The notes below the pieces were generated by a model. It was not told the DNA's origin and searched no databases. It was given only the letters and a program-made list of their open reading frames with translations. DNA of 64,000 bases. It comes from Escherichia coli. Lineage in GTDB: Bacteria; Pseudomonadota; Gammaproteobacteria; Enterobacterales; Enterobacteriaceae. Shown here one piece after another: positions 4,072 to 6,049 of the stretch; positions within the stretch are counted from its first letter, which is position 1; each line of letters starts with the position of its first letter. Where the stretch lies: assembly GCF_003334315.1 (NCBI RefSeq), contig NZ_QOWR01000016.1. The stretch is one strand, 5' to 3'. The translations under genes were made by a program, and so were the position numbers.

Positions 4072-4590
4072 ATGAACATATCCTTAATAACAAATTTATT
4101 TTTTAAAATAAAAAGCTGAAGCAGTATATATATCTGTTTGTGAATGTAAATAAATAACTCGTTCAGAAATAGCCAACTTGCTGGGATGTATTTATTTAAT
4201 GAATTTTATAGTTACGATCATGTGAATAATAAGGTGCTGGTGAGGTGGTTTGTGGTGATAATTATTCATTACATGAATGTTTGCGCTGAAAAATAGGAAA
4301 ATATATAGATAATTAAGGATAATATATTGGTTTTTTATATTCATATTTTGTATATTAATATCGAGACAATTTACATGGAATGAAAAGACTGAATAGCTTG
4401 CAGAATCGGTATTGTCAGAGGTGTTAACAAGTAATTGAGACGGATTGTAAATGAGAAATTGCTTGATGTGCTTCACTCATCAGACTTGGTGAACAAAGCA
4501 CAATTTATTGAAAATTATCCCTATTATAGGAAAGGTCAAACGCTCATGCCGCATTTGCCAGAAAACAACGCGCACTTCGTCAGTAATTTG

Positions 4591-4615
4591 ATTCGCCAGA
4601 CACAGTCTGGCGAAT
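4591..4615 (-). terminator. stem-loop just downstream of gltD stop (possible terminator or 3' stabiliser; no U-tract)
   Basis: Perfect inverted repeat ttcgccagac / gtctggcgaa (10-11 bp stem, loop aca) beginning 16 nt after gltD stop; flanking sequence on the gltD strand is not U-rich. Confidence 0.3.
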
Positions 4616-4630
4616 TCATTGTTACCTCGC

Positions 4631-6049
4631 TTAAACTTCCAGCCAGTTCATAATACCGTCTGCCGCCTTACGACCTTCGGCAATAGCGGTCACCACCAGA
4701 TCGGAACCACGGACGATATCGCCGCCAGCAAAGATTTTCGGGTTGCTGGTCTGGAAGGCGTTGTCGCTGCCTTCCGGGGCGATGATGCGGCCTTGTGAAT
4801 CCAGCTCGACGCTGTGTTTTGCCAGCCATTCCATGTTGTGTGGACGGAAACCAAACGCCATGATCACCGCATCTGCCGGAACGATATGTTCGGAACCTGC
4901 AACGATCTCCGCGCGGCGACGGCCTTTGGCGTCCGGTTCGCCCATTTCGGTACGCACCATTTTTACGCCGCTGACTTTGCCGTTACCGTTCACTTCAATA
5001 CCCAGCGGCTGGACGTTGAATTTGAACTCTACGCCTTCTTCCCGCGCGTTTTTCACTTCGCGGCGGGAACCCGGCATGTTCTCTTCATCACGACGATAGG
5101 CACAGGTAACGTGCTTCGCTCCCTGGCGCACGGACGTACGCACGCAGTCCATCGCAGTGTCGCCACCGCCAAGGACCACCACGCGTTTGCCTTCCATGCT
5201 GACGAACGGTTCGTCGCGGGTTTCACCAAAGCCCATTAACTGTTTGGTGTTGGCGATGAGGAACGGCAGCGCTGCGTACACGCCATCGGCGTCTTCGTTT
5301 TCCAGCCCGCCGCGCATTGACTGATAAGTCCCGACGCCAAGGAACACGGCATCGTAATCACTCAGCAGATCGTCCAGCTGTACGTCGCGGCCCACTTCGG
5401 TATTGAGTTTGAATTCAATACCCATGCCGGTGAAGATTTCACGGCGACGCGTCATTACCTCTTTTTCCAGCTTGAAGGCCGGAATACCGAAGGTCAGCAG
5501 CCCGCCAATTTCTGGATGACGGTCGAAGACAACGGCTTTTACGCCGTTACGCGTCAGGACATCCGCACACGCCAGACCTGCCGGGCCTGCGCCGATAATC
5601 GCCACTTTTTTACCGGTCTGTTTCACACCAGACATATCCGGACGCCAGCCCATCTCGAACGCTTTATCGTTGATATAGCGCTCAATGTTGCCGATGGTCA
5701 CCGCGCCAAACTCATCGTTCAGAGTGCAGGAACCTTCGCACAGACGGTCTTGCGGGCAGACTCGTCCGCAAACTTCCGGCAGGGTGTTGGTCTGGTGCGA
5801 CAGTTCCGCCGCTTCAAAAATACGCCCCTCGTTGGCGAGCTTCAGCCAGTTCGGGATGTAGTTGTGTACCGGGCATTTCCACTCGCAGTATGGGTTGCCG
5901 CACGACAGGCAGCGGTCAGCCTGCGCTTTGGCCTGGCCTTCGGAAAACGGCTCGTAAATTTCAACAAACTCAATTTTGCGGATCTTCAGCGGTTTCTTTG
6001 GCGGATCAACGCGCTGCAGGTCGATAAATTGATAAACATTCTGACTCAT
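4631..6049 (-). CDS. gltD: glutamate synthase [NADPH] small (beta) subunit
   Basis: 472-aa ORF; Cys cluster [14 protein letters not shown] and dinucleotide-binding GAGPAG; ATG at 6049, stop at 4631-4633. Confidence 0.97.

Follow-up and report, generated by a model that had tools for sequence, protein, structure and literature searches.

An orphan hairpin of the yhcG type probably sets and protects the 3' end of the gltBD transcript in Escherichia coli K-12

Hairpins at the 3' ends of bacterial operons fall into several described classes. In canonical intrinsic terminators a GC stem is bordered by an A-run and a T-run. The repetitive extragenic palindromic (REP) sequences and bacterial interspersed mosaic elements (BIME) are dispersed intergenic palindromes that can lie at the 3' end of an operon and stabilise the upstream messenger RNA (mRNA). 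It is also general knowledge from 3'-end mapping studies that stem-loops protect the 3' ends of Rho-terminated or read-through transcripts. Palindromes can in addition be embedded in coding sequence, as are the Rickettsia palindromic elements. Coding palindromes are likewise contained in mitochondrial genes of the Nematomorpha (PMC6649704). The element considered here is a perfect palindrome 3' of gltD, the gene for the small subunit of glutamate synthase, in a 64,000-nucleotide stretch of Escherichia coli DNA (assembly GCF_003334315.1, contig NZ_QOWR01000016.1), referred to as the window. The window is E. coli K-12 sequence, with a 589-nucleotide gltD-gltF query being 100% identical to K-12. 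Taken together, the evidence makes it probable that this hairpin, although no classical terminator, defines the 3' end of the gltBD mRNA and shields it, that it originated as an orphan hairpin of the yhcG type, and that the small open reading frame (sORF) crossing it is not a gene.

The palindrome occupies positions 4591-4615 on the minus strand, which is that of gltD. Its arms (4591-4601 and 4605-4615) are 100% complementary, giving an 11-bp stem with 6 G-C pairs and a 3-nucleotide loop. It reads AUUCGCCAGAC-UGU-GUCUGGCGAAU on the gltD strand and ATTCGCCAGAC ACA GTCTGGCGAAT in the orientation of the sequence motif to which it belongs. A spacer of 15 nucleotides (4616-4630, minus strand), common to E. 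coli alleles A and B described below and alignable to Pseudocitrobacter, separates it from the gltD stop codon, such that the hairpin begins at the 16th nucleotide after the stop. Folded alone, it has a free energy of -17.9 kcal/mol, compared with -4.6 +/- 1.8 kcal/mol for shuffled sequences (z = -7.4; 0/200 shuffles). Directly 3' of the stem on the gltD strand is CAAAUUACUG, which has 2 U in its first 8 nucleotides and does not constitute a U-tract, and a terminator consensus scan of the window did not flag this hairpin. The initial annotation, which had described an 11-bp perfect hairpin 16 nucleotides past the stop that is not a classical intrinsic terminator, is therefore correct on each of these points. 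No relevant match to the hairpin was found among the Rfam 15 covariance models at E <= 10. The flank distal to the hairpin (4563-4590, minus strand) is conserved with the gltD 3' region of a Pseudocitrobacter metagenome-assembled genome (MAG; locus L013), and this is the only similarity found for it (z = 8.5). A potential pairing of 4553-4562 with the right arm of the hairpin was judged to be a coincidence, this third copy of the arm being located in a decayed REP.

Perfect stems of at least 11 bp with loops of 3-8 nucleotides are present at 4 places in the window, compared with 0.12 expected from first-order Markov resampling. The others are at 30532-30556, 32412-32439 and 52028-52052. The last two of these have the A-run, GC stem and T-run structure and resemble classical bidirectional terminators; the hairpin at 30532-30556 (TCATCCCGCGC ACT GCGCGGGATGA) has no T-run.

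Mapping of the gltD 3' end by Term-seq had been proposed in the initial annotation, and a published end is available in Supplementary file 1 of Adams et al. 2021 (PMC7815308), from which the sheet 'M63 0.4' and two lysogeny broth (LB) sheets were used. The ArcZ row served as a check and places the 3' end at nucleotide 51 of each listed string. A 3' end at MG1655 3360660 (+), classed as 'primary' for gltD and having 956 reads in M63 glucose, is listed with AGTTTAAGCGAGGTAACAATGAATTCGCCAGACTGTGTCTGGCGAATCAAA and TTACTGACGA on either side of it (PMC7815308). This corresponds to position 4587 on the minus strand of the window, so that the mRNA ends 4 nucleotides past the stem. The gltBD operon is expressed mainly in minimal medium, which fits the absence of this end from the LB data. 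The end at 3360660 is in the M63 sheet only and in neither of the two LB sheets (PMC7815308).

A second 3' end on the same strand, classed as 'orphan' and having 1859 reads, is located at MG1655 3360783 (PMC7815308). This is window position 4464, 123 nucleotides downstream of the 'primary' end, which it outnumbers in reads (1859 versus 956). It is 3 nucleotides past a second, imperfect hairpin (4467-4502, minus strand; -13.7 kcal/mol), also without a U-tract. The presence of this downstream end means that the first hairpin is read through. No further 3' ends are listed on either strand between MG1655 3360500 and 3360899 in these tables. A Rho region, identified using bicyclomycin, is present inside gltF at MG1655 3361307 (PMC7815308), and the same table, which is of LB data, has no entry at the gltD 3' end. 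Another Rho region is antisense to yhcG at MG1655 3368581 (-), outside the window (PMC7815308). The nan transcripts therefore run past the sister hairpin located beside nanQ.

In the gltBD transcript the palindrome forms a stable stem-loop, located 15 nucleotides past the gltD stop codon, and this structure fixes the mature 3' end about 4 nucleotides beyond the stem. Some transcripts continue to the second hairpin-associated end and toward the Rho region in gltF. In the favoured mechanism the stem-loop would act mainly as a barrier to 3'-to-5' exonucleases, with read-through and Rho-terminated RNAs presumably being trimmed back to the stem, and direct termination by the hairpin would make a weak contribution at most. 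A barrier role is proposed because there is no U-tract and because a share of the transcripts continues past the hairpin. In strains without the gltF-yhc island, where the hairpin is between the convergent nanQ and gltD, it could serve both transcripts. Of the two roles suggested in the initial annotation, that of a stability or processing element is supported by a Term-seq end 4 nucleotides past a stem without a U-tract, and that of a small antisense gene is not upheld.

This arrangement resembles the stem-loop-protected 3' ends in having a stable hairpin without a U-tract, an RNA end a few nucleotides past the stem, transcription beyond it and Rho acting downstream. It differs in that the gltD hairpin shares a sequence family with a neighbouring coding region, and in that its dependence on Rho and exonucleases is inferred here. 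The strong GC-containing stem after a stop codon, the mapped 3' end and, in allele B, the position between convergent genes are shared with canonical intrinsic terminators, however these have a T-run, and the gltD hairpin has no U-tract on the gltD strand. As in REP and BIME, an intergenic hairpin palindrome is located at the 3' end of an operon, where it can stabilise the upstream mRNA, and a decayed REP adjoins it; unlike these, its sequence is unrelated to the REP consensus, is distinct from that of the adjoining relic and is not dispersed. Identity as a dispersed REP-like repeat was rejected, the sequence being present at no more than 4 places per E. coli genome and at one in the window. 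The riboswitch candidate named 'gltD motif' (PMC8632094) belongs to Selenomonadales and Veillonellales, where it is a 5' element, and has no relation to this hairpin.

The sequence of the hairpin conforms to a motif, ATT-NNN-CAGAC-NNN-GTCTG-N'N'N'-AAT, in which the outer triplets NNN and N'N'N' are complementary. The corresponding pattern, ATTNNNCAGACNNNGTCTGNNNAAT, occurs once in the 64-kb window, compared with 0.00 expected. In K-12 the coding sequence of yhcG also contains it three times in tandem, with a period of 39 nucleotides, and a further copy is in the gap between yhcG and nanQ. The copies in yhcG are read in frame as I-x-Q-T-x-S-x-x (EIHQTMSGEL, GIPQTPSAEF and KIWQTLSAKS). YhcG orthologues of 349, 362 and 375 amino acids correspond to 1, 2 and 3 copies of the 39-nucleotide hairpin unit (the K-12 array is at L005:9537-9639). 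Across genera, residue 2 of the repeat covaries with residues 7 and 8 in full agreement with Watson-Crick pairing (R/GE, P/AE, W/AK, H/GE, V/AQ and L/AE). The other E. coli and Pseudocitrobacter yhcG alleles have different repeat sets, their products being 370 and 382 amino acids.

Copies inside yhcG of P. faecalis and of E. coli allele C have exactly the stem of the gltD-side hairpin, ATTCGCCAGAC/GTCTGGCGAAT. The nanQ-side stem is the other P. faecalis in-gene copy, and the stem in the Pseudocitrobacter MAG is that of the third yhcG repeat of K-12. Among the hits listed, the family in E. coli is limited to the gltD-yhcG-nanQ locus, with 4 places or fewer per genome. The gltD hairpin itself is intergenic and is therefore neither in frame within a DUF1016 gene, the family to which yhcG belongs, nor upstream of the LSWSHY segment. 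Since it is intergenic and its flanks are unlike yhcG, it should be seen as an orphan copy, rather than an in-gene member, of a motif that is normally in frame inside yhcG, the ancestral neighbour of gltD. The possibility that the hairpin and its distal flank together are the relic of a yhcG fragment was rejected, because the flank, when aligned by the Smith-Waterman method to both strands of seven yhcG loci, did not score above shuffled sequences. In the comparison of yhcG with the gltD region the palindrome alone is shared.

Strain differences at this locus were identified by megablast against 5426 complete E. coli genomes. In many strains homology ends exactly at 4591, the edge of the hairpin. 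Allele A, that of K-12 (1147/5426 genomes), has the order gltD, hairpin, gltF-yhcADEF, yhcG, second hairpin and nanQ, the last on the opposite strand, such that the gltF-yhcADEF island stands between the hairpin and both yhcG and nanQ. Allele B (946/5426) consists of gltD, 15 nucleotides, the hairpin, 27 nucleotides and the nanQ stop codon, with neither the island nor yhcG. Allele C (3140/5426) has gltD, a different 55-nucleotide sequence with its own hairpin and U-rich tail, yhcG, the hairpin and nanQ. In E. albertii, P. faecalis, Salmonella and C. koseri, yhcG directly follows gltD, as it does in allele C, which makes this arrangement the ancestral one. 3' of gltD, nearly all other Enterobacterales have a classical terminator, with an A-run, a GC hairpin and then a T-run. 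The Pseudocitrobacter MAG has no yhcG, and carries a homologous hairpin (ATTTGGCAGAC AGT GTCTGCCAAAT), a homologous flank of 30-40 nucleotides and an intact REP. Allele B is what would be left of an A-like chromosome if the DNA between its two palindromes were deleted, and may have arisen in this way. The gltD-nanQ interval is a hotspot of structural variation in E. coli, and in some strains there are IS1 insertions in the gap between gltD and gltF.

The small antisense gene proposed in the initial annotation does have the sequence features that were ascribed to it. An ATG at 4546, 10 nucleotides after AGGAAAGG (4528-4535), opens a frame of 35 codons on the plus strand (4546-4653), which is the 3' part of an open reading frame (ORF) at 4435-4653. 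Both the start codon and this potential Shine-Dalgarno sequence are, however, within the decayed REP (approximately 4528-4566), which aligns to the intact REP of the Pseudocitrobacter MAG (L013:7509-7545), where the position of the ATG is occupied by ACG. The segment carrying them is present in approximately 1147 of the 5426 complete E. coli genomes and missing from about 79%; in allele B, which lacks the start region, there is an in-frame TAA immediately before the palindrome, and in allele C the whole of the sORF region is missing. The reading frame is thus not conserved among relatives. In the protein collection searched, the exact 35-residue peptide has been called once, as a hypothetical protein of E. 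coli H383, and the longer frame of 72 residues sporadically, in E. coli only. The RefSeq annotation of K-12 has nothing at this position, the frame is missing from the one ribosome profiling (Ribo-seq) sORF supplement searched, and no 3' ends are mapped to its strand in the Adams et al. tables. Differences between K-12 and Pseudocitrobacter, in an alignment read by eye, are mostly at third codon positions, over 7 codons, a point in favour of the frame. The core of the peptide, IRQTQSGEF, is however dictated by the palindrome, since a palindrome of 11+3+11 nucleotides gives the same kind of peptide whichever strand is translated. That an antisense transcript encodes a 35-residue protein here is highly improbable. 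The plus-strand ORF is judged to be a by-product of the palindrome and the decayed REP, a fortuitous frame and not a gene.

The hairpin family extends well beyond E. coli. A pattern scan of metagenomes from soil, peat, freshwater and gut samples lists at least 133 matches at no fewer than 120 loci. The three free pairs are fully complementary in 87 of 133 matches listed, compared with 1.6% by chance, and involve 24 different triplets. Among 98 distinct sequences, these pairs have 151 cells in which both sides have changed, compared with 55 +/- 8 after shuffling, and none of 500 shuffles reaches 151. Pairing is 96% in the real structure and falls to 21-43% when the partner is slid by 1-3 columns. 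Most of the matches listed (82 of 133) are inside YhcG-like ORFs, and the ATT is phased as an Ile codon in 81 of 85 cases, approximately 95-145 codons into the ORF; others listed fall in DUF1016 fragments with frameshifts, and for some no ORF could be recognised. Wobble asymmetry was considered as a guide to which strand folds. Mismatches on the sense strand are 16 C.A versus 3 G.U, but they cluster at the pair in which a Lys codon (AAA) and a Glu codon (GAA) are in competition, and this guide was set aside.

A test independent of the pattern used the best 150 of the 21,105 cluster representatives of the DUF1016 family (E <= 0.001). I.QT.S is found in 48 of these 150, in 59 instances, and the residues are compatible with a perfect palindrome in 38 of the 59, compared with 14.7 +/- 3.0 after shuffling. 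Such repeats make up the segment from MRxFYLxYP to LSWSHY, the length of which ranges from 8 residues to more than 100. At the DNA level, 6 of eight distant DUF1016 genes have perfect hairpins at the same position with unrelated stems: ATTCAGCAACC/GGTTGCTGAAT, TCCACAAC/GTTGTGGA, TGCCAGAC/GTCTGGCA, TTCTCGACGC/GCGTCGAGAA, GATTCGAGACGC/GCGTCTCGAATC and CAATTCTCTCCAC/GTGGAGAGAATTG. A universal hairpin was rejected, as 2 of the eight do not have it; it is widespread rather than universal. The element is conserved as a structure. No match for the yhcG arrays was found in Rfam 15 at E <= 1, and no description of the family was found in Rfam or in the literature searched. A reported association of DUF1016 with programmed inversion (PMC9881135) concerns the neighbouring genes and not these hairpins.

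In the two human gut metagenome loci L108 (4577-4601) and L157 (4513-4537) there is a family hairpin with arms 12 bp longer (ggcggttcacaa...ttgtgaaccgcc); it lies outside any long ORF, and its surroundings contain none that is DUF1016-like. At L209 (1501-2880) a distant DUF1016 gene contains six repeats of about 60 nucleotides, each with two different in-frame hairpins, and the gene next to it encodes a Fic-domain protein.

Like the coding palindromes of Rickettsia and the Nematomorpha, the inverted repeats of yhcG and other DUF1016 genes are translated in frame, with both arms coding. They differ in being short (8-13 bp), at one fixed position, in one protein family and in variable tandem arrays, and they show no sign of mobility. 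Template-switch mutation at quasipalindromes is known in E. coli. This process could keep the arms complementary without selection and give the appearance of compensatory changes, however it does not account for distant DUF1016 genes having hairpins at this one position with stems of unrelated sequence. Candidate explanations for the hairpins are a cis-element of the mRNA, a nuclease-linked site in DNA that forms a hairpin or cruciform, and maintenance by template switching. It is tentatively suggested, as a possibility short of an even chance, that these covarying hairpins with 3-nucleotide loops and stems of 8-13 bp, in frame and often in variable tandem arrays at one fixed position of DUF1016/YhcG genes, form a new class of cis-acting element. 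They might regulate the nuclease mRNA or, as hairpins or cruciforms in the DNA, provide sites for local rearrangement and for the nuclease itself. Base pairing would dictate the amino acids, and orphan copies would mark yhcG-associated rearrangements and be co-opted as mRNA 3' ends.

Two other explanations of the gltD hairpin need to be weighed. It is unlikely, although worth considering, that the hairpin is a non-canonical intrinsic terminator that releases the transcript directly without a U-tract and that acts bidirectionally on nan and gltBD in allele B. The strength of the stem, the 3' end mapped right after it and the lack of a Rho region called at this location would suit such a terminator, as would the position of the allele B hairpin between convergent stop codons, followed on the nan strand by UUCAUUGUU and on that of gltD by AAUUUAUAAAA. 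However, the 2 U in the first 8 nucleotides past the stem and the negative terminator scan argue otherwise, the 3' end is no more than 4 nucleotides past the stem, and the stronger end 123 nucleotides downstream indicates substantial read-through. The nan transcripts likewise pass the sister hairpin and are halted by Rho inside antisense yhcG. Less probable still is that the palindrome functions in the DNA, as a site of recombination or rearrangement or as a recognition site for YhcG or a partner, with the effect on the RNA 3' end being incidental. The allele boundary is exactly at the edge of the palindrome, allele B resembles a deletion that joined the nanQ-side and gltD-side flanks through a single palindrome, copies both flank and populate yhcG in numbers varying from 1 to 3, and across bacteria the family is tied to a PD-(D/E)XK nuclease gene. 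Such a function is nevertheless putative; the stems covary freely and do not keep to one sequence, which is more in keeping with a structure than with a site that a protein recognises by its sequence, and the mapped 3' end is a real effect at the RNA level.

The preferred reading is still that the stem-loop defines and shields the 3' end of gltBD, with several points weighing against it. An in vivo 3' end is equally compatible with release and with post-transcriptional trimming and cannot distinguish between these, and the gltD end comes from one condition of one study. The bicyclomycin data are from LB, in which gltBD is poorly expressed, so that the missing Rho call says little. The distal flank has no similarity to yhcG. 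A convergent origin of the hairpin is formally conceivable, although the identical 11-nucleotide stems argue otherwise.

For gltBD, an operon without a classical terminator gains a defined 3' end and a spurious small-gene candidate is removed. A hairpin at the 3' end of an mRNA is in itself ordinary; its membership of the DUF1016 family and its position at a structural breakpoint are the noteworthy part. In the DUF1016 hairpin, the structure of the nucleic acid clearly constrains the sequence of the protein, which provides a concrete handle on the function of YhcG and would mislead analyses of residue coevolution. The comparison of the gltD-nanQ alleles also suggests that the palindromes are where a structural polymorphism common in E. 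coli has its breakpoints.

The genes gltB, gltD, gltF and yhcA are on the minus strand. gltB (6062-10630) is followed by gltD (4631-6049; 472 amino acids), the transcript of which ends at the hairpin. The hairpin is in the 559-nucleotide gap between gltD and gltF (3307-4071), the first gene of the strain-variable gltF-yhcADEF island, and yhcA is at 2461-3135. At the start of the window, positions 1-77 are unlike the usual 3' end of yhcD, and consequently the yhcD ORF lacks a stop codon within the window. Most genomes match from position 78 onward; strain C600 matches over the full length, and there the insertion sequence IS2 is annotated beside yhcD.

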